Source: Anaerolineales bacterium (lineage in GTDB: Bacteria > Chloroflexota > Anaerolineae > Anaerolineales > UBA4823). From it: DNA of 27,497 nucleotides. The position numbers were made by a program, and so were the translations under genes. The notes under the pieces are model-generated. The model was not told the DNA's origin. It saw only the letters and a list, made by a program, of their open reading frames with translations, and ran no database searches. Of this stretch, positions 7,716-26,434 are shown in pieces (within the stretch, counting starts at the first letter, position 1; the number at the start of each line of letters is the position of its first letter). The DNA is taken from positions 1-27,497 of the forward strand of contig JADYYC010000210.1 in NCBI GenBank assembly GCA_020853835.1. Reading direction: 5' to 3'.

Positions 7716-8911
7716 TTAGCCTCGGATCAAGCGTGTTTTCCCCGTAAGCAATTCCTGCATCATGCCTTGTTTGAGCAAACGGGTCTTCTCGCGACGCTGT
7801 TCCAATGCAGCGATTTCTGCATCCATGTTTTTTAGGAATTCAGCAATTGCTATTTGTTCTGTGTCATCTTCAGGGATTTCAATTTCAAAAGCCTTCACAT
7901 CCTTTGAATTGACAGCATCAAATGTAGAACCTTTAGAAAGATTTTTCCATGAAGACTCTCTTGCGATCAAAGCATAATAAAGAAAGTCGTTTGGATAACG
8001 GATCCCACATACCCCACGCCCGAGACAGACATCAAATAAAGCTCGTGAAACTTCCCCTACAGGTGCACGAACGGTCATGAGTATGTCGCCAGTATATCCG
8101 CGTCTAGTAATATGCTTTGTAAAAACTCGCACGGTAGTTCCACGATTAGATATATCTGCATTTCCCTGAATTAGTGGTAACCCATCGCCGCTAATATTGT
8201 AGTATATTGAGCTTGGAGATTGTCCCATTACAATTTTGGCAAGATCTCCGAGTTTCTTTACCGTCCACCCAATGCTAAATCCTTCCAATCGTATTTTTCC
8301 AGTCAGCAATTCCTGCATGGCGCCCTGCTTGATGAGGCGCTTTTTGGCGATGAGGGCGTCGAGGGCAGTGAGCAGGGCGTCCACGTCGCTCAGGGCGGCG
8401 GCGATGGCGCGTTGCTCGGTTAGGGTGGGAGGAACGGGTATCTTCCATTGATCGAAAGAGTTGGTGGTAATAGTGCCAAATGTCGTACCATATGTCAATG
8501 CTCTTATTGAGCCTACAGAGAACAGCATGGCATAATAAAGAAAGTCTCGGTCATATTCGTTGACCGGAAGCAAACAATAACACGTCTGATTGAAAGCCAT
8601 TGCATTTCCAAGCTGAGCTATTCTGCCAACCGTAGCACCACGAGCAATAATAATGGTTGTTCCAGTTGGCATTATCCTGGCTGGACAGGATGCAAGACCA
8701 AGATCAGTGATATAGTCTAATGTATCGTGAATATATCGTCCGTTTGCTCGGGATACATCACCAGCCGCGACCCAGGGAATTAGACCATGCCAATAGTCTG
8801 TCACAGCGGTACTGGGCGTACCTCCTCCGTAAACTTCCGCAATAGACCTGATTGTTTTTACATCCCAGTCATCTGGGATTTCACCCACCTCGGTCGGTTT
8901 GTATCCGGCTT

Positions 8912-8915
<4 letters not shown>
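7716..8915 (-). CDS. hsdS: Type I restriction-modification specificity subunit
   Basis: Two TRDs are flanked by conserved repeats EQRAIAAALSDVD...KQGAMQELLTGK and EQIAIAEFLKNMD...KQGMMQELLTGK, with N-terminal GYKPTEVGEIPDDW. The start overlaps the hsdM stop. Confidence 0.96.
7747..8318. repeat. 14-bp direct repeat in the two hsdS conserved regions
   Basis: AGCAATTCCTGCAT at 7747-7760 and 8305-8318 (both encode MQELL). Confidence 0.85.
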
Positions 8916-11278
<2,363 letters not shown>

Positions 11279-11714
11279 GTTATGAGTAATCCGCTTGGGT
11301 TATGATGCTTCCCGGATTTTCCGGAGATAAAAGTGCTCTGATGAACCTTTGATCAATGTATCGCAAAGTGGGATTGCAAAACCAGTTGCCTGTATCTTTG
11401 CCAGGCCGGTAGTTACGCTGGATCCCATTTTGCCAAACCAACTAACACCTTTGCGGGTGACCACCTGAGTGTGCTCACTGATTGTATCCCCCGCATGTTC
11501 AGGCCAAGACCTCGACGGCAGCCATGACGCGAGGTTTTCAATTCCATAGAATAATACTTTATAAGTGCAGGTACTGCAAGCAAACAGGGGTGGCTAAATA
11601 TTGGTACTAAATGAATTGATAGAAACGAGCCGGATAATTAGGAAAGGCTTGCTTATGCCACTGACGCCGATTCAAGCTAAGGTATGATTTCAAACGAAAC
11701 CGCCAATACAAATG

Positions 11715-11723
11715 TGTTATAAT
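11715..11723 (+). promoter_or_regulatory. Extended -10 promoter for the catabolic operon
   Basis: TGtTATAAT with a perfect TATAAT at 11718-11723, about 130 nt upstream of the amidohydrolase ATG. No good -35 seen. Confidence 0.65.
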
Positions 11724-11764
11724 TGCATACAGGTTGTCTACATGGTGTAGACAGTCTGTATATC
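11724..11764. promoter_or_regulatory. Array of four GntR/FadR-type operator boxes
   Basis: TGCATACA (11724), TGTCTACA (11735), TGTAGACA (11746) and TGTATATC (11757) are spaced exactly 11 bp apart. The array is itself dyad-symmetric (ATACAG-GT-TGTCTACA tgg TGTAGACA-GT-CTGTAT). Confidence 0.7.
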
Positions 11765-11853
11765 CTTGCTGACCGTCTTGGATTGATTGAGTGTCACATG
11801 TAACTTGTCGCTATATGTGGACATAACCAGCTATCTTTATTAAGGTGCCATCG

Positions 11854-13419
11854 ATGGATACGTATATTCGTGGAGGACTGATTGTTGACGGAACTGGGAA
11901 GACCGCGTATCCGGCAGATATCGGTATTCAAGGTGATCGGATTGTCTGGATAAACCGGCATCCGGAAAACGGCGGGCTGGTAGACTGTCCAACTATCGAT
12001 GCAACCGGTCTTATCATCTCGCCAGGGTTTATCGATGCCCATACGCATTCGGATTTCGTCTTCTTCCAGGAACCCCGCCCAGATATGAAGCTTCGTCAGG
12101 GCGTGACCACTGAAATCAGCGGTAATTGTGGCTCATCTGCAGCGCCGATCAGCCCGCAAAATCTTGCCTACTTAGGCCCATACGTCCAAGAGACAATCGA
12201 GGCGGTAGGTAGTTTTCATACCTTTGGTGAATACCGAGACCGCATCCAAGAACATGGTCTTATCAACAACCAGGGATTATTAATCGGACATGCTGCTTTA
12301 CGGACATCGGTGATGGGCATGAAGAATCAACGCGCCAGCCCCGATCAAATCTCCAGCATGAAGAGACTGTTGGAGCAGGCGCTGGATGAAGGCGCGATAG
12401 GTTTTTCGAGCGGTCTTTTTTACCCACCGATGGTTTATTCTGACACTCAAGAATTGATCGAACTGTGCCGGGTAGTAGCGCAGCGCGGAAAGATTTTCGC
12501 CTGCCATATGCGCAACTACAGCACGAACGTACTGCAAGCAGTTGAAGAAATGATCACTGTTGCCAGGGGAAGTGGTGTGAGGCTGCAAATTTCCCACCTG
12601 ATGACAGCCGGCAGAAAAAATTGGGGGAAATCCGAGCAAGTACTACAGATGATCGATCACGAGTGCTTACTGAGCCTCGACATAACTTTTGATCAATATC
12701 CCTATCACGCCGCGTTACCAGGTTTGCTGGCTCTGCTCCCTCCATGGATGCATGAAGGCGGCGTCGACAGAACGGTAGAACGGCTCCAGGACCTCATGTC
12801 TTGCGACCAGGCCAAAAAAGATATCGAACAGGGTCTTCCGGGCTGGGAAAATGTTACGGAACAGGCCGGTTGGGAAAATCTGGTGGTGATCTCACCCAAA
12901 ATCGGCGAATATAGCAATCAGACCATCGCTTCCATTGCAGATGCCACAAGAGCTGATCCGGCGGACGTCGTTTTTTCATTGCTCCTCACCGATCCATACT
13001 GTAACCTGGTAGCCCATTGGCTCAACGAGGAAGATGTCATCGAATTTATGAGACATCCCGCTCAGATGTGGGGCTCCGATAGCGCAGAGTCTGGACCGCT
13101 CGCGCACCCGCGGACCTATGGAACCTACCCAAAAATCTTGCGTGAATATGTTTTCGAAAAGGGAGTTCTAAGCTTAGAGACCGCGATTCAGAAGATGTCT
13201 TCTATGGAAGCTAATCGCTTTGGCATTAATCAGCGCGGAGTCATTAAAGAAGGTTTCTTTGCCGACCTTGTTTTGTTCAACCCGGAGACGATAAAACCCA
13301 CCTCGACTTACGACGCCCCCGATGTTTACCCAGAAGGCGTAATTCACGTTTTCGTCAATGGGAAAATCGCGGTTGAAAATATGCAGACAGCTTCGGGGAA
13401 ATTTGGGAATGTCCTATAG
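11854..13419 (+). CDS. N-acyl-D-amino-acid deacylase (D-aminoacylase)-like amidohydrolase
   Basis: PGFIDAHTHSD, GVTTEISGNCG (Cys ligand), CHMRN, ISHL, DQYPY, WGSD and HPRTYGTYP. ATG 11854 is preferred over GTG 11845 because TAAGGTG lies 6 nt upstream. Confidence 0.9.
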   Translation: MDTYIRGGLIVDGTGKTAYPADIGIQGDRIVWINRHPENGGLVDCPTIDATGLIISPGFIDAHTHSDFVFFQEPRPDMKLRQGVTTEISGNCGSSAAPISPQNLAYLGPYVQETIEAVGSFHTFGEYRDRIQEHGLINNQGLLIGHAALRTSVMGMKNQRASPDQISSMKRLLEQALDEGAIGFSSGLFYPPMVYSDTQELIELCRVVAQRGKIFACHMRNYSTNVLQAVEEMITVARGSGVRLQISHLMTAGRKNWGKSEQVLQMIDHECLLSLDITFDQYPYHAALPGLLALLPPWMHEGGVDRTVERLQDLMSCDQAKKDIEQGLPGWENVTEQAGWENLVVISPKIGEYSNQTIASIADATRADPADVVFSLLLTDPYCNLVAHWLNEEDVIEFMRHPAQMWGSDSAESGPLAHPRTYGTYPKILREYVFEKGVLSLETAIQKMSSMEANRFGINQRGVIKEGFFADLVLFNPETIKPTSTYDAPDVYPEGVIHVFVNGKIAVENMQTASGKFGNVL

Positions 13420-13443
13420 GAGGATCTATTGAAACGAAAATTA

Positions 13444-13490
13444 TTCATACAAACCAACGCCAACATACAATAATTATGCATACAAGGAGG
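13444..13490 (+). promoter_or_regulatory. Possible internal promoter/operator upstream of the binding-protein gene
   Basis: Three CATACAA copies (13446, 13464, 13479), including TGCATACA at 13477-13484 which is identical to the box at 11724. TTCATA-16-TACAAT is present, then RBS AAGGAGG. Confidence 0.45.
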
Positions 13491-13498
13491 TAGTAACT

Positions 13499-15202
13499 AT
13501 GAAAAAAATGAAAACATCCCGAACGTGGATGTGGATCGCTCTGATGATGATCCTGGTCTTGGTAGCTGGCTGTGCCAGCCCTCAGACTCCTACTGCAGCC
13601 CCCCAGGAACCGACGGCTCCCGCTGTAGAAGCACCCAAGACTCCGGAAGAGTCTGAAGTTCCTGAAGCCACAGAAGAGGTTGTGTCCGAACCGCCGGCTG
13701 AAGTTAAACCACCCGAAGGGGTCGAGCAGGTGCTGAGAATCAACTTTCGTATCCCTGCTGGCGGAGTTGACCCTGTGGTTGAACAGGCGGATGCCGGTTT
13801 TCAGATGATGTCTGCCGTATATGACCGGCTGGTGGTAGTAAATAGCAAGATGGAACTCGTTCCTCAACTCGCTGATTCTTGGGATGTGTCTCCGGACGCG
13901 AAGACCTGGACCTTCCATCTGCACCCTGGCGTCAAATTCCACGACGGCACTACCTTGGATGCCGAGGCGGTCAAGCATTCGATCAGTCGGGTGTTAGACC
14001 CAGCGAATGCCTCCCTCTATGCATCTACTCTTACGATGGTTGATTCTATCGAGGTCATCGATCCTTTGACCGTCCGGTTCAATCTGTCCTACCCGTTTGC
14101 GGCTTTTGTCCGCTCCCTGGCTCTGCCGGGTGCAATGATCACCTGTCCGCAAGAAGTAGAGAAATGGGGCAAGGACTTTGTACAACACGGCTGCGGATCG
14201 GGGCCCTTCTATATCGACAAATTTGTTCCAGGAGAAGGCATGGAGGTGGTGCGCTTCGACGATTACTGGCGCGGACCGGCCAAGTTAGATAGAATCGTTT
14301 ACACGTTCATCTCGGATGAACAGGCGCGCGTCTCAGCGTTGATTGCTGGCGATACCGATTTCGAGACGAACATTCCCGGCCCTATGCTACCGCTGGTCGA
14401 GAGCAATCCCGACCTGACCATCGAACGTGGTCCTGCAATGATGGTCGAGTACATCGGTTTCAACACCACCGATCCAATCTTTTCCGACAAACTCGTCCGC
14501 CAGGCCGTAGCATACTCGATTGACATGGAGACGCTAATCAAGAATGTGATGGGCGGCGTGGGTGTGCATGCTAGCCAGCCCATTTCGCCTCTGGCCTTCG
14601 GTTATGACCCTTCTCTTAAGCCGATTCCTTATGATCCGGCGAAGGCCACTGAACTGCTTAAGCAGGCTGGCTGGAGTGATACAAACGGCGATAAGGTGAT
14701 GGACAAGAATGGAGAATCCCTCACCACCAAGTTCTGCATCATGAGCATCCCCCAAATGGTCCAGTTTGCCCAGGGCGTACAAGCCTACATGAGAGATGTA
14801 GGAATTGACGCCCAAATCGAAAGCCTGGATTGGGGCACTTATCTGGATGCCGCTCAAAGCGGGAATTGTCCAATATTTGAAATCGGCGAAGGCGCTAACA
14901 CCGGCGACGCAGATTACATCTTATGGAGTCAGTTCCATTCCAGCATGATTCCAGCCAGTAACTGGACCCGGTATAACAGCCGCACCTACGACGAGCTGAT
15001 GGTCCAACAGCGCCAAGAGGTCGATCCGGATAAACGCCTTGAACTTCTCAACCAGTCGGTCCGGCTGCTAATGGAAGACATGCCATGGGTGCCAACCTGG
15101 GTGCGCGAAAATCTGCAAGCGCATAAAAGCTATGTGAAGGGTTATGTCCAGGGACCGAGCACAACCTATATGGACCTATACCCTGTATATATCGGAAAAT
15201 AG
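13499..15202 (+). CDS. ABC transporter family-5 (Dpp/Opp-like) substrate-binding lipoprotein
   Basis: Signal peptide with lipobox VAGC (Cys25) followed by a P/E/A/T-rich linker. Family-5 signature PQLADSWDVSPDAKTWTFHLHPGVKFHDGT, plus GSGPF and VRQAVAYSID. Confidence 0.95.
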   Translation: MKKMKTSRTWMWIALMMILVLVAGCASPQTPTAAPQEPTAPAVEAPKTPEESEVPEATEEVVSEPPAEVKPPEGVEQVLRINFRIPAGGVDPVVEQADAGFQMMSAVYDRLVVVNSKMELVPQLADSWDVSPDAKTWTFHLHPGVKFHDGTTLDAEAVKHSISRVLDPANASLYASTLTMVDSIEVIDPLTVRFNLSYPFAAFVRSLALPGAMITCPQEVEKWGKDFVQHGCGSGPFYIDKFVPGEGMEVVRFDDYWRGPAKLDRIVYTFISDEQARVSALIAGDTDFETNIPGPMLPLVESNPDLTIERGPAMMVEYIGFNTTDPIFSDKLVRQAVAYSIDMETLIKNVMGGVGVHASQPISPLAFGYDPSLKPIPYDPAKATELLKQAGWSDTNGDKVMDKNGESLTTKFCIMSIPQMVQFAQGVQAYMRDVGIDAQIESLDWGTYLDAAQSGNCPIFEIGEGANTGDADYILWSQFHSSMIPASNWTRYNSRTYDELMVQQRQEVDPDKRLELLNQSVRLLMEDMPWVPTWVRENLQAHKSYVKGYVQGPSTTYMDLYPVYIGK

Positions 15203-15278
15203 ACATCCGCAAACCGCTGCATGAAAGATCGATGTCAGTCGGCTAGGAAATAGCAACATCGTCGAAAGCGATTGTCAA

Positions 15279-15327
15279 CGGGTGCATTGCATTGCATAAT
15301 CGTATTCAACGTAATGCAATGCACCCG
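15279..15327 (+). repeat. Long intergenic hairpin between binding-protein and permease genes
   Basis: CGGGTGCATTGCATTGC (15279-15295), 15-nt loop, GTAATGCAATGCACCCG (15311-15327): 16/17 Watson-Crick pairs plus one G-U. No U-tract follows. Confidence 0.85.
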
Positions 15328-15393
15328 AAACCGCTTGCCAGACAGAAGCACGTTTCGTCAATTTTGGCAGATGCGCTGAGGAGATAACTTTTT

Positions 15394-16311
15394 ATGTACT
15401 ATGCCATTCGGAAACTCCTGATGCTCATTCCGTTGATGCTGGGAGTATCTTTTCTGGTTTTTCTGATGATGCGAGTGTTGCCAGGCGACCCAGCAAAAAC
15501 CCGCGCCGGTCTACATGCCACTCCAGAGATGATCGAAAAGATCCGCCAGGAGTTACAACTGGATAAACCTCTACTTGTGCAATATTATCTCTTCTTGCGT
15601 GACGCAGTACACCTGGATTTTGGACGCTCCATTCGCTCCAATCAACCGGTGTTAACCGAGTTTCTAATCAGATACCCAAACACGATCATGCTGACCCTGA
15701 CGGCAACAATGCTGTTTCTACTCATCGGGATTCCGCTAGGGGTGATCGCCGCCGTGCATCACGGCTCAATTTGGGACGGTTTGACCATTCTCGTCGGCCT
15801 TATTGGTATCTCGATGCCCAGTTTTTGGCTTGGGTTGTTGCTTATCTGGGAATTCGCCGTGAAACTTAAGCTGCTTCCATCCTTTGGACTTTCCAGTCCC
15901 GCGCATATGATCCTGCCTGCGATCACCCTGGCAGCCTATGGGATCGCCTATACGGCACGTTACACTCGCTCGAGCATGCTGGAAGAGCTAGGCCAGGACT
16001 ATATCACCGCTACGCGCGCCAAAGGCTTGTCAGAGAGAACGGTTTTATACCGTCATGCGCTGCGAAATTCGCTGCTTCCAATTCTCTCACAAGCCGCGCT
16101 CGGTTTTGGTTATATGCTTGGTGGATCAGTTGTGATTGAGGTAGTATTTACAATCAATGGTATCGGTAAGTTAATCGTCGATGCCATTCTGTATCGGGAT
16201 TTTCCCATTGTGCAAGCTGGCGTTTTGCTGATCTCGATAAATTTCGTTTTGGTAAACTTATTTGCCGATCTGGCGTATGGCTTGATCGACCCTCGCATCC
16301 GCTTAACCTGA
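15394..16311 (+). CDS. ABC peptide-type permease (DppB/OppB-like)
   Basis: LPGDPA, LDKPLLVQY, DFGRSI, SMPSFWLG, EAA loop YITATRAKGLSERTVLYRHALRNSL and RDFPIVQ. Confidence 0.95.
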   Translation: MYYAIRKLLMLIPLMLGVSFLVFLMMRVLPGDPAKTRAGLHATPEMIEKIRQELQLDKPLLVQYYLFLRDAVHLDFGRSIRSNQPVLTEFLIRYPNTIMLTLTATMLFLLIGIPLGVIAAVHHGSIWDGLTILVGLIGISMPSFWLGLLLIWEFAVKLKLLPSFGLSSPAHMILPAITLAAYGIAYTARYTRSSMLEELGQDYITATRAKGLSERTVLYRHALRNSLLPILSQAALGFGYMLGGSVVIEVVFTINGIGKLIVDAILYRDFPIVQAGVLLISINFVLVNLFADLAYGLIDPRIRLT

Positions 16312-16329
16312 TCAGGTGCGGGTTAAATC

Positions 16330-17235
16330 ATGGAGGAAAATATCCTGCTTACCGAACCAAGACTAGTGCCCCCTGCCTCTGTCCCAAAGAGGCGAGCCTC
16401 GCTTTACCAACACGCATTTCGCCGGTTTATTAAAAATAAAATAGCGTTGTTGGGCCTGGGACTTGTCGCGGTTCAGATCTTGATTGCCATTTTTGCAAGT
16501 GTTATCGCGCCGTATGACCCTCTGGCTGTTGACATGAAGACCGTGCTGGCGCCGCCGCTCACCCCGGGGCACCTGCTGGGCACCGACGACCTGGGTAGAG
16601 ATATGGTCAGTCGCTTGGCCTATGGAGCGCGAATTTCTTTCGGGGTGGGGTTGGTAGTGGTGCTTATTGCCATATCTATCGGCGTCCCACTCGGCGCATT
16701 GGCTGGTTACTTTCAACGCCTCGATCCCTGGATCAGCTTCGTCATCGAAGTGTTGTTAGCATTTCCCGGCATCATTCTGGCGCTTGCAATTGTCGCTGCG
16801 CTTGGCCCGGGGTTATTAAGCGTTATGATCGCCGTTGGGATTACCTCGGTGCCGATGTATGTGCGTGTGGTACGCGGGCAGGTCCTTTCGCTCAAGCAAA
16901 GAGACTACGTTGTATCGGCGCGAGCACTCGGGATGAGCGAGGGCGGCATCCTGTTCCGGCAGATATTGCCCAACTGCCTGGGCCCGATCATTGTTCAGGC
17001 GACGATCAATATCGGCACATCGATCCTTCAAGCCGCATCCTTAAGCTTCATTGGTGTGGGCGTACAACCGCCCCAACCAGAGTGGGGCGCCATGCTCAGC
17101 CAGGCACGCAGCTATATCATTCTAGCGCCCCACATCGTAGCGCTGCCGGGAATAGCGATCATGTCGGTTGTCCTTGGCTTCAACTTGCTTGGAGATGGGC
17201 TGCGAGACGCACTGGACCCACGTTTTATACGCTGA
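16330..17235 (+). CDS. ABC peptide-type permease (DppC/OppC-like)
   Basis: HLLGTDDLGRDMVSRLAYGARISF, EAA loop YVVSARALGMS, PPQPEWGAML and GDGLRDALDP. Confidence 0.95.
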   Translation: MEENILLTEPRLVPPASVPKRRASLYQHAFRRFIKNKIALLGLGLVAVQILIAIFASVIAPYDPLAVDMKTVLAPPLTPGHLLGTDDLGRDMVSRLAYGARISFGVGLVVVLIAISIGVPLGALAGYFQRLDPWISFVIEVLLAFPGIILALAIVAALGPGLLSVMIAVGITSVPMYVRVVRGQVLSLKQRDYVVSARALGMSEGGILFRQILPNCLGPIIVQATINIGTSILQAASLSFIGVGVQPPQPEWGAMLSQARSYIILAPHIVALPGIAIMSVVLGFNLLGDGLRDALDPRFIR

Positions 17236-17278
17236 GCCTGAAGGCTGAACACAAAAAACAGAGAAGGAGGACCAAAAA

Positions 17279-18496
17279 ATGTCAGACGAATATGGAAAGA
17301 CTAAAGTGGCTTATGATTGGGAACACCGCAGGCAATATCTTGTGCTCCCATTTCCAATGAAAGAATATCAAAGGCGCGTGGATGCATTAAGGCGTTCGAT
17401 GAACGACGCCGGCCTCGAATATCTGATCATTTACGGTAACCCGGCTTGCACTGGCCCGATCTACTATATCGCTAACTTTGATAGCTTTTTTGGGAACACC
17501 ATCGTCTTCTTGCCCGCTTCGGGCGATCCGGTGTTGATTACCGATGGCATAATGCACAGCGAGCCAATGCACAGCGGGATCTGGACGACATGGATTCGCG
17601 ATATTCGACCAGCCAACCATCCAGCAACAGTGCGCCATACGCGCAACCTATCTGATTTCATCGTCGATGAACTGAAGAGGCTGGGCTTATCAGATGCTCC
17701 AGGGGGTCTAATCAGCGCGGGTTTCTTCCCATACACCTTCATGCAGCGGTTGAATGACTTGCTGCCCGACATCCAACTATCCCCTGCAGAGGCTGTTTTC
17801 GAACGAGTTCGCTCGATTAAAAGCGACCTGGAGGTTGCCCTCCTGCGCAGGACGGCAAAGATCGCCTCACTAGGATTAGATCATGTATTTTCAATCCCGC
17901 AAGCCGGGATGACCGAAAAACAACTGGCAGCCGAAGCCGTGCGCGTCTTTTTGGAAGAGGGTGCCGAATTTCCGTTGATGGTAGCAGTGACTGCGGGCGT
18001 GCGTGCTGGGCTGAAACACGCCAGCCCCACAGATCAGAAGATTAAAAACGGTGATATGATTTTCGTGGATGTCGGGACGCCGGTGAGCGGTTATTTTAGC
18101 GACGTTGCCCGCAGCGGCGTGGCAGGCAAAGCCAACCAACAACAAATCGCGATGTTTAAAACCGCTCTGGAAATGCACGATCGTGTGATCGCTGCGATTA
18201 AGCCAGGAGCGCGCATCTGCGACTTACAACGCATTGCAGAGGAGGTGGCGAGGACAAACGGTTTTGCCAATTATTACTATCCCACTGGCTTTGGACACGG
18301 AATCGGCACCTCCGTAGCCGAGACACCGATCCTATTTCCTGATAACGAGGCCGCGCTAGAGAAGAATATGGTGTTTGCTTTAGAACCGATGATTGTGATC
18401 GAGGGAGTGGGCACCGCCGTGTTCGAAGAGATGATTCTGGTTACATCTGAAAGCTGTGAAGTCTTATCCGATGCAACACTTTCCACCTGGAAGTAG
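17279..18496 (+). CDS. M24B (Xaa-Pro peptidase/creatinase-fold) hydrolase
   Basis: Creatinase-like N-domain (PFPMKEYQRRVDALRRSM) and RSIKSDLE. Metal ligands are in FVDVG, FSDVAR, GHGIG, ALEP and FEE. Confidence 0.9.
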   Translation: MSDEYGKTKVAYDWEHRRQYLVLPFPMKEYQRRVDALRRSMNDAGLEYLIIYGNPACTGPIYYIANFDSFFGNTIVFLPASGDPVLITDGIMHSEPMHSGIWTTWIRDIRPANHPATVRHTRNLSDFIVDELKRLGLSDAPGGLISAGFFPYTFMQRLNDLLPDIQLSPAEAVFERVRSIKSDLEVALLRRTAKIASLGLDHVFSIPQAGMTEKQLAAEAVRVFLEEGAEFPLMVAVTAGVRAGLKHASPTDQKIKNGDMIFVDVGTPVSGYFSDVARSGVAGKANQQQIAMFKTALEMHDRVIAAIKPGARICDLQRIAEEVARTNGFANYYYPTGFGHGIGTSVAETPILFPDNEAALEKNMVFALEPMIVIEGVGTAVFEEMILVTSESCEVLSDATLSTWK

Positions 18497-18512
18497 ATGA
18501 TAAGGAGACGTT

Positions 18513-19481
18513 ATGGGTGAAAACGAAGGTATCTATCCCGGGCTTGGATTAGTGCATTACGTTTCATTCCCAAAGAATATCCCGGGCGATGGTCCGATTA
18601 TCGAGAACTTGGAAAGCATCCTGGCGGATGACGATTTCCAGACAATTGAAATTTCATGGATTAAAAACGAAGATGTAAAAAAGAAAGCCAGCGCTTTACT
18701 GAAGACTTCAGGCAAACGGATAGTATTCTCAGGTGGCCCTCCCTTCGCCTATCAACAGATTAATCTGTCTTCGCTGGATGATGGCGAACGAAAATATTCA
18801 ATGGAGTACGCTAGGCAATTGTTCGATGATGCCCGTCTCTTCAACGCCTGCATTTTTCTTATTACGGGTGGGCGCGATACGTTGCCTTCAGAAAGAGAGC
18901 GCGCCAAGGACAAGCTGGTTCAGTCTATCGTTGAACTCTCAAAATATGCCCGAGAACATTCCGATCAGTCGCCGATCTACCTCTCACTCGAGCCAGTAGA
19001 TAGGGCGGTTCACCGTAAAGGGTTGATCGGCCCGATTGCAGAAGCTGTCGAGATAGCGCAAAGAGTGGAGCAGGCAGGTGAAACGCTTTATCTAACCCTC
19101 GATCAGTCACACCTTGCTCAGCTCGGCATAGCGCCTGGTGAAGCGCTTCGCCTGGCTTATAATTATCTTTTCCATGTCCACCTAGCAAACTGTATTATCT
19201 GCGACCCACAACATCCTTTGTATGGCGATGAGCATCCTTACTTTGGAATAAAAGACGGGGAGCATGGATTACAGGAACTGGTAGTTTTTCTGAAAATATT
19301 GGAGAAGCTGGGTTATTTCAGTCGCCAGCCGCCTTATGGAGGCTGGCCAATCGTCAGCGTCGAAGTCAAGCCTTTGGATAATGAAGATCCAGTTGAGGCG
19401 CTGAAAACTACCAAAGCTGTTCTGGCAAAATCATTCGCCGAAACTTGTCTTTCCTCACTATCTGAAAGGATCAGCCGATGA
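18513..19481 (+). CDS. Sugar-phosphate isomerase/epimerase-like TIM barrel (AP_endonuc_2 family)
   Basis: The E/D/H/E metal-site pattern is present in LSLEPVDR, LTLDQSH, FHVHLAN and VSVEVK. The stop overlaps the next ATG (ATGA). Confidence 0.8.
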   Translation: MGENEGIYPGLGLVHYVSFPKNIPGDGPIIENLESILADDDFQTIEISWIKNEDVKKKASALLKTSGKRIVFSGGPPFAYQQINLSSLDDGERKYSMEYARQLFDDARLFNACIFLITGGRDTLPSERERAKDKLVQSIVELSKYAREHSDQSPIYLSLEPVDRAVHRKGLIGPIAEAVEIAQRVEQAGETLYLTLDQSHLAQLGIAPGEALRLAYNYLFHVHLANCIICDPQHPLYGDEHPYFGIKDGEHGLQELVVFLKILEKLGYFSRQPPYGGWPIVSVEVKPLDNEDPVEALKTTKAVLAKSFAETCLSSLSERISR

Positions 19482-20659
19482 ACCCCGAGCTACAAATGTT
19501 CGTTCAAAACGAACTCAATACTTTGCGCGAGCAAAACACCTATAAAGAACGACGCTACCTGGAAAGCGAACAGGGACCCCGCGCAATTTTAAACGGCAAG
19601 CGAGTGGTGATGCTTTGCACCAATAATTACTTAGGCCTGGCAAATCACCCACGCGTAAAAGAAAAAGCTATCCAGGCGGTGAAGGATTATGGTTGTGGAA
19701 CAGCATCGGTGCCGGAAGTGTGCGGATTAACCGACTTACACGCCGAGTTGTGCCGCCGCGTCGCTGCGTTTTCAAACACAGAAGATGCGCTTTTGTACTC
19801 GTCTTGCTCAACCGCCAATATGGGCGTGGTCGGTGCATTGGCTGGCGAAGGCGATGTTATCATCAGCGACCAGTATAACCATGCCAGCATCATTGATGGT
19901 TGCCGCTTGAGCAAGGCGCGCACAGTAGTCTTTCCACACAATGACATGAATCGCCTGGAGCAAGTTCTACGTGACGAGAGCAGCGCTCGGCTTCGAATGA
20001 TCGTGGTCGATGGCGTGTTCAGCATGGAGGGAGATGCTGCGCCCTTGGATCAGATCGTCTCCCTGGCAGAGAAATATCATGCGTTTACAGTGGTCGACGA
20101 ATCGCACGCAGCGGGGGTTTTAGGCGCTCGCGGAGCTGGCACAGTCGAACATTACCGCCTACAAGGAAAAGTTGACGTGTTAACCGGAACGTTCGGGAAA
20201 GCCCTTGGGGGCGCGGGGGGTGGTTACGCTTGCGCCTCGCGCGAGGTAATCGATTACCTGTATCACCGTTCGCGCACGTTCATCTTCTCGAACACGATGC
20301 CGCCTTCGGTGATCGCGACCGCTTTGGCTGCCCTGGATGTACTCGCAGAAGAGCCGCAGCTTTTGAAAAAACTCTGGGAAAATGAACGGTACTTCCGGTC
20401 GCGCCTGGAAGCCACTGGTTTGAAAGTCGGCGGTGGAGAAGCGGCAATTCTCCCGATTCTGATCGGAGATCATCAAAAAGCTTATGCCTTGAGCCGCGCA
20501 TTGTTGGAAGAAGGAGTATTCATCACTGCTGTTGGCTTTCCAGTCGTTGCCAAGGGCCAGGCCAGGTTGCGCGCACAGGTATCTGCAGCGCACACGAAAG
20601 AAGACCTGGATGCGGTAACTATCATTCAAGACACCGCGGCAAAACTGGGTATTATCTAA
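19478..20659 (+). CDS. PLP-dependent alpha-oxoamine synthase family, Kbl (glycine C-acetyltransferase)-like
   Basis: LCTNNYLGLANHP, SDQYNHASIIDG, VDGVFSMEG, DESHA, PLP-lysine motif GTFGKALGG and ARLRAQVSAAH. The symbol kbl is withheld because the SVRFI loop is altered. Confidence 0.9.
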   Translation: MNPELQMFVQNELNTLREQNTYKERRYLESEQGPRAILNGKRVVMLCTNNYLGLANHPRVKEKAIQAVKDYGCGTASVPEVCGLTDLHAELCRRVAAFSNTEDALLYSSCSTANMGVVGALAGEGDVIISDQYNHASIIDGCRLSKARTVVFPHNDMNRLEQVLRDESSARLRMIVVDGVFSMEGDAAPLDQIVSLAEKYHAFTVVDESHAAGVLGARGAGTVEHYRLQGKVDVLTGTFGKALGGAGGGYACASREVIDYLYHRSRTFIFSNTMPPSVIATALAALDVLAEEPQLLKKLWENERYFRSRLEATGLKVGGGEAAILPILIGDHQKAYALSRALLEEGVFITAVGFPVVAKGQARLRAQVSAAHTKEDLDAVTIIQDTAAKLGII

Positions 20660-20668
20660 GAGGGATGG

Positions 20669-21319
20669 ATGGATAATAAAATCTCGAGTGAAAGTGGTGT
20701 TCCCTCGATTGCAGAACAAGTGCGATTAAGGCTAAGAGCCGATATTTACAGCATGGTTCTCAAACCAGGTCAGCCCATAATAGAAGCTGAGATTGCCCGG
20801 CGGTTCAAAATCAGCCGTACGCCTGTGCGGGAAGCGATCAAAGGGCTGGAAGCAGAGGGGCTGATAGTGTCTTATCCAGGGCGAGGTTCTCAAGTCAGCG
20901 AAATATCGATGAGAGACCAACTGGAAGCGCTGGAGGTGCGCGAGCTGCTTGAGCCCTATATGGCGCGCAAAGCAGCGGCAAATTTCACAGACAGCATCGG
21001 AGTACAGATCCAGGAACTCCTGCATGAATTAGAGGCTGGGCCCGATCAACCAAGCGAAATGGCCGATCGGATCGATTTCGATTTTAAAATCCACGACCTC
21101 ATTTGGCGCGCTTGCGGGAATGATGTTATGCACTCGATCATGCTGTCGATGTATTACCGGGTGAAACGTACCTATCCGCTATTGAAACGCTACAAGATCA
21201 CTAAAGATGAACATCGCCTGATCTTGGAGTCAATTCAAAATCAAGATGAAGAACAGGCCGAGGCGCTTATGCGTGAACACGTCCGCGGCCTCCGGCTAGA
21301 GTTTGTCAGGATTTTTTAA
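20669..21319 (+). CDS. GntR family regulator, FadR subfamily (FCD domain)
   Basis: wHTH LKPGQPIIEAEIARRFKISRTPVREAIKGLEAEGL. FCD features are EVRELLE, DFKIH...CGN and EH..I......D...AE..MREH. Confidence 0.95.
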   Translation: MDNKISSESGVPSIAEQVRLRLRADIYSMVLKPGQPIIEAEIARRFKISRTPVREAIKGLEAEGLIVSYPGRGSQVSEISMRDQLEALEVRELLEPYMARKAAANFTDSIGVQIQELLHELEAGPDQPSEMADRIDFDFKIHDLIWRACGNDVMHSIMLSMYYRVKRTYPLLKRYKITKDEHRLILESIQNQDEEQAEALMREHVRGLRLEFVRIF

Positions 21320-21332
21320 CCGTTGTAACGCG

Positions 21333-21361
21333 CCAGTTAACATCCGGTTACTGGTTTGTTT
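21333..21361 (+). terminator. Weak intrinsic terminator-like hairpin after gntR
   Basis: CCAG(T)TAAC-atccg-GTTACTGG followed by TTTGTTT. Confidence 0.4.
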
Positions 21362-21420
21362 CTGCTCGTGATCAAGATGAAACACCCAATTCTTACACTA
21401 CGTAACATCGGAGGATAATT

Positions 21421-22194
21421 ATGAAAACTTTACTTATGGAGGAAATGACCTCCCGCGAAATCAAGCAGGCTATTGCCGATGGTTACACAACCGTAATCGT
21501 TGCCGCTGGATCGATCGAGCAGCACGGGCCGCACCTGCCCATCGGCACCGATTATATGCTCGGCACCACAGGCGCGTTGGAGATCGCAGAAGGTCTGGGG
21601 CATACCCTGGTAGCTCCAACTATTCGCCCGGGCTGTTCAGACCACCACATGCCGTTCTCTGGAACCATCACGATTTCAACAGAACTCTTAAAAGAGCTGT
21701 GTCGAGCATACTGCCGTAGCCTGGCAAAACATGGATTTACACGCATCGTCTTATTAGCGACGCACGGCGGAAATATCGAACCAATGGCTGAAGTCGCTCC
21801 GGAAATCGCGGCAGAGCTGGGTTGTACCGTCGTCTCGCCGCTTATCCTGGGAACCCCGGAAACAATGGGCTGTATGAGACCCTTGATTGAGGCGCATGGT
21901 TTGACTGAAGATGAAAGCGGCATCCACGCCGGGTTCATCGAGACTTGCGAGATGTTGGCCAGCCCATTTGCCCACCTGGTAGAGATGGAACACGCCGAGC
22001 GTGGCTTCACCGGCAACCCCTTTGAGGCGATCGAAAAAGTCAAGGTGGATGGACACTGGAAAATGACGGACATCTCTCCGAACGGGATTCTGGGTGATCC
22101 ACGCAAAGCCAGCGTTGAGGCTGGTAGGGAGCTTAGCCGGATTGCAACCCCGGTGTATGTAAAGATTGTTGCCCAGGCGTTAGGCGATGCCTAG
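21421..22194 (+). CDS. Creatininase (creatinine amidohydrolase) family protein
   Basis: GSIEQHGPHLPIGTD, SDHH, THGGN and HAGFIET retain the E/H/D/H/E metal ligands. RBS GGAGG. Confidence 0.92.
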   Translation: MKTLLMEEMTSREIKQAIADGYTTVIVAAGSIEQHGPHLPIGTDYMLGTTGALEIAEGLGHTLVAPTIRPGCSDHHMPFSGTITISTELLKELCRAYCRSLAKHGFTRIVLLATHGGNIEPMAEVAPEIAAELGCTVVSPLILGTPETMGCMRPLIEAHGLTEDESGIHAGFIETCEMLASPFAHLVEMEHAERGFTGNPFEAIEKVKVDGHWKMTDISPNGILGDPRKASVEAGRELSRIATPVYVKIVAQALGDA

Positions 22195-24301
22195 AAGGGG
22201 CACTTTCGGTCTGGAATCGTTGTTTTATGCCCGCTCTATCGCTTTAATCGGAGCATCAAACAACCCACGGAAAGCTTCAAACCAGGTCATATCCACATTG
22301 CTTGAAAAAGGGTACTCAGGTAAAGTTTATCCGGTGAACCCTAACGAGGAAAAGGTACTGGGCCTGAGATGTTATCCGGCTGTTGAGGAAATCGCAGACC
22401 CAATCGACTTAGTCGTGATCAGTTTACCGGCAGAGGCGGTAATACCTGCAATCGAAGGGATTGCGCGGCGAGGTGATGTATATGGCGTTGTAGTCTTATC
22501 AGCAGGGTTTGCTGAGACAGCCATCCCTGAGCGGGTTGCACTGGAAACGAAAATTATAGAAATATCGCGTTTGGCTGGCATGCGCGTGGTGGGCCCAAAC
22601 TGTGTCGGATTACTATGCACTGACAACCGTTTAACAACTGGATTCATCCCTGGCCTAAAGATGGAAAAGGGAAGCCTGGGCTTTATCACTCAAAGTGGTG
22701 CGTTTGGCGGTGCGTTTTTGATGCTGGCTAGCGACCAGCCCAAACCTTTGGGCTTTAATAAGTTCGGACATGTGGGCAATATGGCTGATGTCTCGAACTT
22801 AGATCTGCTGAAATATTTCGGTTCCGATCCGGAAATAAATGCGATCTCGATGTACATGGAAAGCGCACCGGATGGACGAAAGTTGATGACGATGTTGGAA
22901 GACATTTCCAGGCGCAAACCGGTTTTTGTCTTGAAGGTTGGTCGCACACCGATCGGATCGCGCGCGACGTTATCACACACGGGTGCGCTGGCCGGTTCGG
23001 ACCAGGTTTACTCAGCCGCGTTCAAACAAGCGGGCGCGGTGCGCGTCGAAACCCTCGAAGAGCTCCTTGACGCCAGCAAAGCTACAACTATGATGCCCAG
23101 GCCGGGCGGTCGACACATCGCAGTGCTTACCGAAGCGGGAGGCCCCGGAATAATTGCGATGGATGAAATCGGTCGAGACAAGAGCTTACAGATGGCCCAC
23201 CTCGCTCCAGAGACGCGCAGAAAGCTCGAACACTGTCTACCACCGATGGCGATGATATGCAAACCTGAAGGCTATGTGGATATGACTGCTTCAGCAATGG
23301 AAAAAGAGCATGCCGAAGCTTTGGATGCGATACTGGCGGATCCTGGGGTGGATTCTGCCGTTTTAATCAGCCTGCCCCCGACGTTTCTACCCGCTATTGA
23401 TGTCGCTAAAGCAATAACTGAAGTCATCCATCATCATCAAAAACCGGTGGCCGTTTGTTTTATGCGCGGTGAGGCTATGATGGACGCGCGGTGCTATCTC
23501 GAAGGAAATGGTATTGCCACATTCGAATCTCCACAACGGGCTGCGCGTGCGCTTATTAACCTAACAGCCGCAGCAGGTTTCATAAACCGATCGGCCCAAT
23601 CGCTCGATGTCTATAGACAAAAGGGTCCGGTGCAAAAACGGCTGAATTCAGCTGCTCCGATAACTGAGCCCGAAGCAGTTCAGTTGCTTGCTGAATATGA
23701 AATACCTTACCCCGCGCACCGGTTTACAACTAATCTTCGAGAAGCCGAAGAAGCAGCCAGTGAGATCGGTTACCCTGTGGTGATCAAAGCTGTCTCGCAA
23801 GATATTGTACACAAAAGTGATCTAGGTGGGGTGGTGACGGCTATCAAGAGTGGTCAGATGCTGCGCAAAGCCTACCGCCAGATGAAGGCAGCCATTAAGG
23901 AAAAAGCTCCTGATGCTAGTTTACAGGGCATCTTGGTTTGCAAACAAGCAGAAGATGGCCTGGAAGTGATCGTCGGCGTCAAACGCGATCCCGCATTTGG
24001 ACCCGTTGTCCTTTTCGGTCTAGGTGGAATTTTTACCGAGGTTCTGCAAGATACCGCGTTACGAATTGTCCCCTTCAGCAAAGATGAGGCGCTGAAGATG
24101 ATTAACGAAACTCGCGCCTCATTGCTGCTAAAAGGATCTCGAGGTTTTCCTGCGGTCGATGTTGAGTTGCTAGCCAGATTATTGGAATCAGTTTCTCAGT
24201 TGGCGATCGAACACACCGAGATAGCCGAACTAGACCTGAACCCGGTTCGCCTCTATCAAGATGATCTCATTGTTCTAGATGTGCGCGCAATCCTGGCATA
24301 A
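22187..24301 (+). CDS. ADP-forming acetate/acyl-CoA ligase, fused alpha-beta form
   Basis: CoA-binding domain (SIALIGAS, YPVNP, GFAE, GPNCVG, QSGA) and phospho-His loop SHTGALAG. ATP-grasp features are IGYPVVIKAVS, HKSDLGGV, DPAFGPVVLFGLGG and ELDLNP. Overlaps the creatininase stop by 8 nt. Confidence 0.93.
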   Translation: MPRRGTFGLESLFYARSIALIGASNNPRKASNQVISTLLEKGYSGKVYPVNPNEEKVLGLRCYPAVEEIADPIDLVVISLPAEAVIPAIEGIARRGDVYGVVVLSAGFAETAIPERVALETKIIEISRLAGMRVVGPNCVGLLCTDNRLTTGFIPGLKMEKGSLGFITQSGAFGGAFLMLASDQPKPLGFNKFGHVGNMADVSNLDLLKYFGSDPEINAISMYMESAPDGRKLMTMLEDISRRKPVFVLKVGRTPIGSRATLSHTGALAGSDQVYSAAFKQAGAVRVETLEELLDASKATTMMPRPGGRHIAVLTEAGGPGIIAMDEIGRDKSLQMAHLAPETRRKLEHCLPPMAMICKPEGYVDMTASAMEKEHAEALDAILADPGVDSAVLISLPPTFLPAIDVAKAITEVIHHHQKPVAVCFMRGEAMMDARCYLEGNGIATFESPQRAARALINLTAAAGFINRSAQSLDVYRQKGPVQKRLNSAAPITEPEAVQLLAEYEIPYPAHRFTTNLREAEEAASEIGYPVVIKAVSQDIVHKSDLGGVVTAIKSGQMLRKAYRQMKAAIKEKAPDASLQGILVCKQAEDGLEVIVGVKRDPAFGPVVLFGLGGIFTEVLQDTALRIVPFSKDEALKMINETRASLLLKGSRGFPAVDVELLARLLESVSQLAIEHTEIAELDLNPVRLYQDDLIVLDVRAILA

Positions 24302-24349
24302 CAGACGGGTACAAAAGACGAGACTGTTTTATAGCTTACAGGGAACTAG

Positions 24350-26434
24350 ATGAACCTATCACAAAATCTAAATGAGCACACGCCACTGCTCGCTGTGGAC
24401 GATCTTAGAACTTATTTTACGAGCGATGATGGCTGTGTTAAAGCGGTGGACGGTGTGGATATTGAAGTCTATCCCGGCGAGGTGTTGGGATTAGTTGGTG
24501 AGTCGGGATGCGGAAAGACGGTCACATCTTATTCAATTCTGCGGTTGGTCCGCCGTCCAGGACGCATCGTTGGAGGTGCAGTTGAATTCGAGGCTAAGAG
24601 CCTGCTGAACCTGTCAGAGCGCGAGATGACCCAGTTACGGGGTGAACAAATCTCGATGATTTTTCAGCAGCCGCAAACCAGCCTGGATCCAGTTTATCCA
24701 GTTGGAGATCAAATCAGTGAAGTCTTCCAAAAACACCGAAAGTTGAGCAAAAGAGAATCCTGGAAGAAGGCTGTTGAACTTCTCCGCATGGTCGGTATTC
24801 CTGACCCAGAGAGTAAGGTTCATGCTTATCCATTTGAAATGTCAGGAGGTCAAGCGCAGCGGGTGATGATCGCCATGGCGCTAGCGCTGAACCCTAAGTT
24901 GTTAGTTGCTGATGAACCAACAACCGCGCTGGATGTGACTATCCAAGCGCAAATACTCGATCTTCTGCGCGATCTTAAAAGCCGCTTTGGCACCTCGGTG
25001 ATTTTGATCACCCATGATCTGGGAGTGATCGCCGAAATGGCCGATCGAGTTGCTGTAATGTATGCCGGGTTGATAGTTGAGCAAGCCAATGTCGGTCAGA
25101 TCTTCGATACACCATTACACCCATATACCCAGGGTTTAATCGCGTCTACCCCTAAGTTAGGAGAAAAGAAAGAACGGCTGGAGGTAATCCCTGGAAATGT
25201 CCCTAATCTAATTAACCTACCTGTGGGTTGCAGCTTTGCACCGCGTTGTCGGGCTCGCGTGATCAATAATTTGTCGATCTGCGAAGAGCAGATGCCGGAC
25301 TTAGTCGAGGTTGAGCCCGGTCAACAGGTTCGCTGCTGGCTCTATTCGAACAGAAAAAACAGATCGCCTATTCTCAAGGGAAGTGATGAGAAGGCTATAG
25401 CCTTAAGTGTAATCGAGCAGGCCGAGAACCAAATAGAGAACCCAAGACAGGGGCTAGGCGATAAAGATAGCAACCAATTGCTACAGGTCAAACAACTGAC
25501 TAAATATTTCCCGGTGCGCAGCGGCTTGTTCAAACGTGCAACGGCCTGGGTACAAGCCGTAGACGGTATTGATTTCAGTATTCGAGCAGGCGAAACCATG
25601 GGGTTGGTTGGCGAATCGGGCTGTGGGAAGACGACAGTTGGTCGAACGATTTTACGACTTGAAGACCCGACGGCAGGGACAGTGTATTACCAAGGCGCAA
25701 ACATCTTCCGCTATCGAGGTGACGAGCTAAAGCGAATACGACGCGAGATGCAAATCATTTTCCAAGACCCGTATTCTTCCCTCAATCCGCGCCAGACAGT
25801 TGGCGAATCAATTGGCCTGGGATTGGATATCCATAATATTGGGAAAAAGTCGGAACGCTTTGGTCGTGTTCTCGAGATCATGAAGACAGTTGGGCTGGAA
25901 GAATATCATGCACGACGCTACCCTCATGAATTTTCAGGCGGTCAGCGCCAGCGGATTGGCATTGCCCGAGCGCTCATCTTGCAGCCACGCCTAATAATTT
26001 GTGACGAGCCTGTATCGGCATTGGATATGTCATTCCAGTCACAAGTGCTCAATCTGCTCAAAGATCTGCAAATTGAGTTTGGATTAACGTATTTATTCAT
26101 TACCCATAATCTATCGGTCGTGGAGCACGTTTCTGACCGAGTAGCCGTCATGTATTTAGGAAAGATTGTCGAACTCTCGCCATCAGACGAATTGTTTAGC
26201 AATCCAATTCATCCTTACACCCAGGCTTTGCTATCCGCCATCCCGATCCCGAAAGCGCGCCCAGAGCGCACAAGGATGATTCTAAGAGGCGATGTCCCAA
26301 GTCCACTAAACCCACCAAAAGGCTGTCGCTTCCACCCGCGTTGTCCGGTGGCAATGGAGATATGTGCACACCAGGAGCCGACCTTCAAAGAAAGAACGCC
26401 AGGACATTATGCGGCTTGTTGGCTTGGGGATTGA
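24350..26434 (+). CDS. Fused DppD-DppF (double) ABC ATPase
   Basis: Two GESGCGKT Walker A motifs, signatures MSGGQ and FSGGQ, and Walker B ADEP and CDEP. Each half ends in the HPYT...GCxFxPRC...C...C extension. Confidence 0.95.

Follow-up and report, generated by a model that had tools for sequence, protein, structure and literature searches.

An eleven-gene operon of an Anaerolineales bacterium, most likely for importing an amide-protected amino-acid derivative, unmasking it and splitting it into glycine and an acyl-CoA

Contig JADYYC010000210.1 of the Anaerolineales bacterium assembly GCA_020853835.1 carries a real and intact operon, conserved in further uncultured bacteria and probably serving an amino-acid catabolism that ends in a Kbl-type cleavage. 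In the most likely reading, an amide-protected amino-acid derivative is taken up, freed of its protection and cleaved to glycine and an acyl-CoA. The window, which is the whole stretch of 27,497 nucleotides analysed here, is one entire contig (C210) of a 515-contig metagenome-assembled genome (MAG) that is 84% complete. The reading centres on two adjoining genes, one encoding a metal-dependent TIM barrel of the ketose epimerase/isomerase type and the other a Kbl-like alpha-oxoamine synthase dependent on pyridoxal phosphate (PLP). Literature searches returned no published description of this gene combination.

The open reading frame (ORF) listing together with Pfam and NCBIfam scans places 11 genes on the plus strand, between 11845/11854 and 26434. 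Their products are, in order, an amidohydrolase, a solute-binding protein (SBP), two permeases, an M24 metallohydrolase, the TIM barrel, the Kbl homologue, a GntR/FCD regulator, a creatininase-family hydrolase, an ADP-forming acyl-CoA synthetase (ACD) and an ATPase. The intergenic distances are, in the same order, 79, 191, 18, 43, 16, -4, 9, 101, -8 and 48 nt, the TIM and Kbl genes overlapping by 4 nt and the creatininase and ACD genes by 8 nt. An initial annotation, made from the sequence alone, had described 12 co-oriented and tightly packed genes. Their shared strand and close spacing (gaps of -8 to 191 nt) are borne out and its fold assignments were correct, but 11 genes were counted, the DppD/DppF-like ATPase being a single ORF of 694 aa. 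The ATG start at 11854 chosen in that annotation agrees more closely with the N-termini of orthologues than does the GTG at 11845 upstream of it.

The TIM barrel, being the least annotated gene, served as the probe for orthologous loci, and eight further contigs retain the order M24-TIM-Kbl(-GntR-creatininase). The order of the window including the ACD gene (type A) recurs in locus L001 and on the P0004 contig. Type B comprises L002, L009 (a Chloroflexota MAG locus), L095/L096, the P0008 contig and L097, and runs Amidohydro_3, ATC_hydrolase, Amidohydro_2, SBP(s), permeases, M24, TIM, Kbl, GntR and creatininase, without an ACD gene. Its extra hydrolase-fold genes after Amidohydro_3, a weak ATC_hydrolase match (PF14196) and an Amidohydro_2 gene, are absent from the window, and their products in L002, L009, L095 and L097 have no NCBIfam match. 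In type C (L003, L015) the TIM-Kbl pair is divergent from genes for a 3HCDH-family dehydrogenase, a threonine-dehydratase-like PALP enzyme and an Amidohydro_3 protein, sometimes accompanied by M24; L003 has in addition an acetyl-CoA hydrolase/transferase-family gene and an Nramp-like transporter instead of the peptide ABC system. L005/L006 combine an Aminotran_4 gene with TIM-Kbl and Amidohydro_3. The Eubacteriales locus L053 holds genes for Amidohydro_3, an M20 amidohydrolase, a Ddl-like ATP-grasp ligase, Kbl, TIM, ACD, a 2-hydroxyacid dehydrogenase and M24, and its transporter is of the TAXI-TRAP type, not a peptide ABC system. These partial versions (L003, L005/L006 and L053) always retain the TIM-Kbl pair and Amidohydro_3. 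Because an identical gene set and order recurs on independent contigs, chance does not account for the arrangement. Whether the genes are kept together elsewhere was a point on which the initial annotation had staked its reading; they are co-conserved, and the cluster is one conserved unit.

In L001, the closest orthologous cluster (3176-6646), the Amidohydro_3 protein is called as 391 aa only and the SBP lies in two ORFs, which reflects either sequencing frameshifts or decay; the ATPase orthologue of this locus stands at the opposite end of the cluster. No close TIM homologue was found in five genomes of the host's genus, and at the end of one type A contig lie an integrase fragment and an antitoxin gene. 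The cluster is therefore patchily distributed and probably mobile. E. coli genomes, searched for nearly identical DNA, yielded none.

A maximum-likelihood tree of 85 TIM sequences groups every one of the 11 Kbl-linked TIM barrels in a single 12-member clade (support 100/94). The remaining member comes from L015, whose contig ends just past the TIM gene, and the 73 other relatives in the tree are not Kbl-linked. The wider family, at 33-41% identity, has 564 matches among species-representative genomes. Its commonest neighbour is a D-2-hydroxyacid dehydrogenase gene (36 of the 82 fetched loci), which lies directly downstream, as in L055 at 10001-11930, and this uncharacterised pair occurs in Chloroflexota, Armatimonadota, Acidobacteriota, Bathyarchaeia and others.

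The Kbl homologue (19478..20659, plus strand; Aminotran_1_2) matches Thermus AONS/KBL and E. coli Kbl with 352-361 bits. Its residues H135, D207, H210, K241 (the PLP lysine) and R365 align to those of Thermus AONS/KBL and are invariant in orthologues. Among the NCBIfam glycine C-acetyltransferase families it passes NF005394 (489 against a cut-off of 460) and misses TIGR01822 (438/493) and TIGR01825 (461/535). The acyl-pocket loop is altered, reading ASVP79E80VCG, with Pro-Glu where E. coli Kbl has Arg-Phe (A-S-V-R-F-I-C-G, as quoted in the initial annotation). Glu80 is kept in six of the seven TIM-linked Kbl orthologues, while the residue before it varies between Pro, Ser and Arg. By analogy with structure work on ALAS and Thermus AOS (ThAOS), this loop would govern the choice of acyl-CoA, and a glutamate in the acyl pocket suggests an acyl group that is hydroxylated or aminated, not plain acetyl. 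The genome encodes two other alpha-oxoamine synthase paralogues with canonical loops, that of the C384 copy reading A-A-V-R-T-I-A-G.

The likeness to the Tdh-Kbl route of threonine breakdown consists of a Kbl-type PLP enzyme with complete catalytic residues and the expected products glycine and an acyl-CoA. The cluster departs from that route in lacking a threonine dehydrogenase, in having a sugar-epimerase-like TIM barrel as the partner, in its Pro-Glu loop and in missing two of the three cut-offs. No threonine dehydrogenase was found in the window, and the best score in the 84% complete assembly is 194 against the TIGR00692 cut-off of 458. A dedicated linkage of such a TIM barrel to a Kbl homologue was likewise not found described in literature searches.

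The TIM-barrel gene (18513..19481, plus strand; AP_endonuc_2) ends in a stop codon that overlaps the Kbl start. Across 28 sequences the tetrad E160-D197-H223-E284 does not vary, and it aligns with that of D-tagatose 3-epimerase and MJ1311. The predicted model (pLDDT, the predicted local distance difference test, of 93) is a (beta/alpha)8 barrel whose fold matches reach a probability of 1.00. Its nearest structures are the isomerase Art22, D-tagatose/D-psicose 3-epimerases, UlaE/SgbU and 5-keto-L-gluconate epimerase, followed by apiose isomerase, xylose isomerase and the 3-keto-glucoside 4-epimerase YcjR, and all of these fold neighbours abstract a proton beside a carbonyl. The enzyme shares the fold (template modelling score, by hit, of 0.7-0.8) and the Glu-Asp-His-Glu tetrad with ketose 3-epimerases and keto-acid isomerases such as DTE, UlaE/SgbU, IolO, FrlC, OtnI, YcjR and Art22. 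It differs from them in an identity of merely 15-18% and in motifs of its own, namely DRxxHR, DQSHL and GDEHP. No NCBIfam curated family is reached, the best being IolO at 27 against 300, and a protein-atlas search returned generic "sugar phosphate isomerase" clusters only. Orthology to hydroxypyruvate isomerase or 2-oxo-tetronate isomerase was rejected, there being no NCBIfam match to either.

Two distant members of the TIM family (37-39% identity; L004 at 8946-9929 and L007 at 6342-7292) lie in sigma-54/PrpR-regulated clusters with genes for a DUF1537 four-carbon-acid kinase, a zinc alcohol dehydrogenase, an EutA-like Asp/Glu racemase and threonine-aldolase-like and other PLP enzymes. L004 additionally carries PdxA and a SerC-like gene, and L007 a creatininase, M20 peptidases and an Opp system. 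These clusters look like a separate uncharacterised route for a C4 hydroxy-amino acid, for example 4-hydroxythreonine. Such genes recall the tetronate pathways (DUF1537 kinases, PdxA2), whose partner genes are missing from the window; the link hints only at the size and type of molecule handled by the TIM family. No matching pathway emerged from literature searches on Art22 or on 4-hydroxythreonine, DUF1537 and glycolyl-CoA.

The first gene of the operon (11854..13419, plus strand) encodes a metal amidohydrolase of the D-aminoacylase fold (Amidohydro_3, Pfam 98.9 bits), in which the substrate site is atypical. Among solved structures it is closest to D-aminoacylase (272 bits), N-acyl-D-Glu deacylase and the GlcNAc1A deacetylase OngB (217 bits), a carbohydrate de-N-acetylase with 2-acetamido-2-deoxygluconate as its substrate (PMC12017989). 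The enzyme shares with these groups the fold, the metal ligands (H66, H68, C95, H221 and H251) and the catalytic aspartate (D412), all of which align to AfDam and are invariant in orthologues, as well as the Tyr-Tyr-Arg of the substrate site (Y193, Y285 and R423). It differs in the lysine that binds the alpha-carboxylate, which is reported to be strictly conserved in the D-aminoacylase, N-acyl-D-glutamate deacylase and OngB groups (PMC12017989). At the position of AfDam Lys252 (PpOngB Lys254) the window, L002 and L009 have Met, L003 and L005 have Thr and only L053 has Lys, which is to say Met or Thr in five of the six cluster orthologues. The specificity-determining insertion domain is also about 44 residues longer, and the protein stays under the D-aminoacylase cut-off (NF006560, 181 against 340). 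The description "D-aminoacylase-like" first given to it is right for the fold and is not supported at the replaced alpha-carboxylate lysine.

The kinship with OngB (217 bits) raises the thought that the substrate is a sugar-amino-acid conjugate or amino-sugar acid, of the Amadori/Heyns, opine-like or GlcNAc1A type. The amidohydrolase would then remove an N-acetyl group, the TIM barrel would shift a keto group along the polyol chain or epimerise it, as FrlC and YcjR do, and the Kbl homologue would cleave a 2-amino-3-keto-aldonic acid into glycine and a polyhydroxyacyl-CoA. The fold neighbours of the TIM barrel, YcjR included, are all keto-sugar epimerases or isomerases, Glu80 of the Kbl homologue would suit hydroxyls, the agropinic-acid binder AgaA is among the nearest structures of the SBP, and type B adds Amidohydro_2, a family that includes sugar lactonases. 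Nevertheless the carboxylate-binding lysine of OngB is not retained, the window holds no kinase, deglycase, SIS or aldolase gene, and the M24 and creatininase-family enzymes would have no obvious role. Furthermore, amino-aldonic acids need a prior oxidation to acquire a carbonyl and types A and B have no oxidoreductase, which together make a sugar-derived substrate distinctly unlikely. The fructoselysine (frl)/Amadori pathway itself was rejected, as its cut-offs were missed and neither a PfkB (FrlD) nor a SIS (FrlB) domain is found among the 11 genes.

The second hydrolase (17279..18496, plus strand) is an M24 metallohydrolase with a creatinase/prolidase N-terminal domain (Peptidase_M24 and Creatinase_N, Pfam 166 bits). 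It retains all five metal ligands (D264, D275, H340, E369 and E383), and Ala347 replaces the second His of the prolidase "HE" motif. Against the named NCBIfam families it scores far under every cut-off (DoeA_2 NF038259 113/575, TIGR02993 85/613, PepQ 112/630), and it reaches just 61 bits against creatinase 1CHM. Its full-length NCBIfam and PDB matches are ectoine hydrolases only, again with scores far under the cut-off. The third hydrolase (21421..22194, plus strand; Pfam 195 bits) belongs to the creatininase family of metal hydrolases, and its metal and catalytic residues E33, H35, D44, H115 and H169 are invariant in orthologues. It too stays under the NCBIfam cut-offs (MftE 117/172, creatininase TIGR04448 89/235), IolN being missed as well.

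The ectoine and hydroxyectoine routes (DoeA/EutD, DoeB/EutE, EutABC) resemble the cluster in pairing an M24 enzyme, here with its full-length match to DoeA, with a deacylase, and relatives of the cluster add EutB-like and EutA-like genes. A hydroxyectoine-like cyclic amidine or guanidine osmolyte could accordingly be the substrate; M24 would open the ring as DoeA does, the amidohydrolase would deacetylate the product as DoeB does, and the resulting 3-hydroxy-diamino acid would be oxidised or transaminated before Kbl yields glycine and an amino- or hydroxy-acyl-CoA, namely glycyl- or glycolyl-CoA. Besides the ectoine hydrolase matches of M24, this would fit the type C PALP enzyme, which scores 174 bits (below cut-off) to the hydroxyectoine dehydratase EutB, the EutA-like Asp/Glu racemases added in L004 and L007, and the acyl-pocket glutamate, which could pair with an ammonium or hydroxyl group. 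The probability of such a substrate is nonetheless small. The DoeA scores (113/575 and 85/613) are far too low, and the window has neither a DoeC/DoeD-type dehydrogenase nor a transaminase. Ectoine importers are not known to be SBP_5 systems. The creatininase, ATC hydrolase and Amidohydro_2 proteins would be left without a role and the function of the TIM barrel unexplained. The ectoine pathway proper was rejected on its missed cut-offs and absent partner genes; the Pfam and NCBIfam scans found no class-III transaminase or aldehyde dehydrogenase in the window, DoeC and DoeD are missing, and the downstream chemistry of TIM barrel, Kbl and ACD is foreign to it.

Creatinine degradation likewise combines a creatininase-family protein with an M24 enzyme of creatinase architecture, and both occur here in one operon. 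The differences lie in the TIGR04448 score of 89/235, in the peptide-type importer and in the M24 enzyme, which keeps five metal ligands, unlike creatinase, which is metal-free. The creatinine pathway proper was rejected since cut-offs were missed and partner genes were absent, the same scans having found no sarcosine oxidase, reductase or dehydrogenase domain in the window. The initial annotation had been unable to match the cluster to known routes, and by curated cut-offs or gene content it indeed corresponds to none of the creatinine, ectoine, threonine (Tdh-Kbl), fructoselysine or opine routes.

The importer begins with a family-5 solute-binding lipoprotein (13499..15202, plus strand; SBP_bac_5, 336 bits), whose LVAGC lipobox followed by a Pro/Glu-rich linker is consistent with a predicted role in uptake. 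The solved proteins closest to it are an uncharacterised SBP, GsiB/YliB, the agropinic-acid binder AgaA and HbpA. Two permeases of the Opp/Dpp type follow, the first at 15394-16311 (plus strand; BPD_transp_1 with BPD_transp_1_N) and the second at 16330-17235 (plus strand; BPD_transp_1 with OppC_N). The system is completed at the far end of the operon by a fused double ATPase that is DppD/DppF-like (24350..26434, plus strand; two ABC_tran and two oligo_HPY domains in the one ORF).

Since the SBP, permeases and ATPase score as Dpp/Opp/Gsi-type proteins, the operon could be read as ordinary peptide salvage, for instance of cell-wall peptides containing D-amino acids or proline. The three hydrolases would be peptidases or deacylases, a standard Kbl would act on 2-amino-3-oxobutanoate derived from threonine by an unlinked dehydrogenase, the ACD would form acetate and ATP, and the TIM barrel would be a passenger. 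The best solved relatives of M24 are prolidases, the creatininase-family member has its best score against the peptidase MftE, the Kbl homologue passes NF005394, the top NCBIfam score of the ACD is acetate-CoA ligase and the host group occurs in sludge, all of which would agree with it. A passenger TIM barrel is hard to reconcile with the 4-nt overlap with Kbl, the retention of the pair in all three architectures and its single clade. A threonine source sits poorly with an assembly in which no Tdh scores above cut-off and in which a canonical Kbl/AONS paralogue is encoded elsewhere, and standard Kbl chemistry with the replacement of Phe by Glu in the pocket loop. Likewise the M24 enzyme has lost the peptide-binding His and the amidohydrolase the alpha-carboxylate Lys, and L053 and L003 have TAXI-TRAP and Nramp-like transporters in place of the peptide ABC system. 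Peptide salvage is hence unlikely.

The ACD (22187..24301, plus strand) is a fused alpha-beta protein of 704 aa with CoA_binding (PF13380), Succ_CoA_lig (PF13607) and ATP-grasp_5 (PF13549) domains. Among solved proteins it comes closest to the ADP-forming 4-hydroxybutyrate- and 3-hydroxypropionate-CoA ligases (about 373 bits), and it falls under all NCBIfam equivalog cut-offs. A simple search with the motif GHAG/HAG for the phospho-His segment gave no match. Disposal of a CoA ester is encoded beside Kbl by the ACD gene in type A and L053 and by the acetyl-CoA hydrolase/transferase-family gene in L003.

The regulator (20669..21319, plus strand) has GntR and FCD domains by Pfam, and its gene keeps its place in orthologous clusters. 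An extended -10-like promoter element, TGnTATAAT, was read from the sequence ahead of the first gene, at 11715..11723 on the plus strand. A consensus promoter scan did not list it because a good -35 hexamer is absent. It is directly followed by a near-perfect palindrome (11727..11761, no strand assigned) with 16-nt arms that are 88% complementary and a 3-nt spacer, which is a candidate operator of the GntR/FCD regulator. The palindrome core, GTCTAC-N5-GTAGAC, is unique within the window, with 0 expected in shuffles; the core GTCTAC-N-GTAGAC is absent from the orthologous loci examined and no regulon motif could be defined. The two elements are plausibly a promoter plus GntR operator.

Because CoA-ester-consuming genes, an importer and a repressor accompany Kbl, a catabolic, thiolytic direction is favoured. 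In the opposite, anabolic or salvage direction, the ACD would activate an imported acid, Kbl would condense the CoA ester with glycine to an alpha-amino-beta-keto acid, and the TIM barrel and hydrolase-fold enzymes would tailor a small metabolite. In its favour, most alpha-oxoamine synthases serve biosynthesis, ADP-forming ligases are able to work toward the CoA ester as the nearest solved relatives of the ACD do, and L053 carries a D-Ala-D-Ala-ligase-like ATP-grasp gene. This direction nonetheless appears very improbable, given that the cluster has a binding-protein-dependent importer and a GntR/FCD repressor, as catabolic operons typically do, that three to five hydrolases and no exporter are found in the cluster, and that type B keeps TIM-Kbl yet has no ACD.

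It is proposed that the operon is substrate-inducible and that its substrate is an imported polar amino-acid derivative, N-acylated and/or cyclised. The lipoprotein SBP_5 and the Opp/Dpp-type ABC system would take it up, and two or three of the mono- or binuclear metal hydrolases (D-aminoacylase-fold, M24 and creatininase-family) would deacylate it or open its ring to leave an alpha-amino acid with an oxo or hydroxy function adjacent to C2. The TIM enzyme may then abstract a proton beside the carbonyl in the manner of ketose 3-epimerases and isomerases, either in a shift from a 3-hydroxy-4-oxo to a 3-oxo-4-hydroxy compound or in a C2/C4 epimerisation of an amino-keto acid, and hand the labile 2-amino-3-oxo acid, as the right isomer, directly to the translationally coupled Kbl homologue. 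Kbl would use CoA to cut C2-C3, giving glycine and an acyl-CoA, from which the ACD would release the free acid with formation of ATP and recycling of CoA; in L003 the CoA-transferase/hydrolase-family gene may replace the ACD in this last step. The GntR/FCD protein would act as a repressor at the promoter-overlapping palindrome. As a whole, this reading, in which the hydrolases unmask a polar keto- or hydroxy-amino acid, the TIM barrel supplies the 2-amino-3-oxo acid, Kbl forms glycine and a polar acyl-CoA and the ACD recovers ATP, is given a probability of about one half. The gene content, the intact catalytic residues, the co-conservation and the single Kbl-linked TIM clade are observed; the direction of flux, order of steps, TIM role, acyl group and substrate are inferred.

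Several points weigh against it. Types A and B have no dehydrogenase, whereas type C (3HCDH-family and Thr-dehydratase-like enzymes) and L053 (2-hydroxyacid dehydrogenase) carry such genes. With oxidoreductases confined to type C and L053, the origin of the 3-oxo group may differ between types or the TIM barrel may have a different role, and its replacing a dehydrogenase is thus only one option. The ACD is missing from type B and therefore ATP recovery is not a core step; the ATP-yielding acyl-CoA step proposed at first is an accessory. The role ascribed to Glu80 is a putative one, drawn from the ALAS and ThAOS work, and the Kbl homologue, having passed the NF005394 cut-off, could simply use acetyl-CoA/2-amino-3-oxobutanoate. 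Finally, the RNA contigs that cover the cluster are of low depth and could include DNA carry-over.

A more specific form of the proposal is less likely than not. In it, TIM and Kbl would be a previously unrecognised, redox-free catabolic module, in which the epimerase-like TIM barrel, dedicated to its Kbl partner, makes or epimerises a labile 2-amino-3-oxo acid and Kbl cleaves it to glycine and a hydroxy- or amino-acyl-CoA. Three to five hydrolase families (D-aminoacylase-fold, M24, creatininase, ATC-hydrolase and Amidohydro_2) would feed it through substrate specificities that are new to them. The substrate would belong to a class of cyclic or N-acylated keto- or hydroxy-amino acids without a known catabolic route. 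Hydroxyectoine, doubly oxidised chitin sugars, glycation-derived hydroimidazolones, beta-hydroxy-Arg or -Orn and N-acyl-D-threonine are guesses that the data neither support nor exclude.

The GyrB of this assembly shares 86-93% identity with proteins of Anaerolineales/Chloroflexota MAGs. Nearly identical DNA is present in activated-sludge and wastewater metagenomes from several studies. Three sludge metatranscriptome assemblies contain short contigs of 99-100% identity and low depth over most cluster genes, some of them spanning the permease-M24, GntR-creatininase and creatininase-ACD junctions, which is weak evidence of expression. In the RNA-library assemblies X17 and X18 a contig joins position 16784 to 10866 through 17 foreign letters; this most likely represents conserved ABC and methylase segments of another organism or an assembly chimera. 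The glycine cleavage T protein GcvT is present in the assembly, and thus glycine can enter the glycine cleavage system. The earlier suggestion of fermentation is not supported; the host comes from activated sludge and carries this protein.

Upstream of the operon lies a minus-strand type I restriction-modification operon (3040-11278) with hsdM at 8912-11278, hsdS at 7716-8915 and hsdR at 3759-6785. A gene for a NucS_C/PD-(D/E)xK-like nuclease (6787-7713, minus strand) sits between hsdS and hsdR, and one for a YgjP-like metallopeptidase (3040-3762, minus strand) comes after hsdR. Farther upstream are a Fic/DOC-family gene (673-1821, plus strand) and, after it, a 246-aa ORF (1939-2679) that the initial annotation had labelled an HhH-GPD glycosylase and that has no Pfam match.

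If the proposal is true, a Kbl-type retro-Claisen cleavage would be fed without a threonine dehydrogenase, and the xylose-isomerase-like TIM family would gain a new activity on amino-keto acids. Hydrolases of the D-aminoacylase-fold, M24 and creatininase families would gain new specificities. Being small, soluble and open to a clear assay by CoA release or consumption, the TIM-Kbl pair can be tested directly in vitro. The compound itself would be a nutrient for filamentous Anaerolineales and for further uncultured bacteria of wastewater sludge, about whose substrates little is known.

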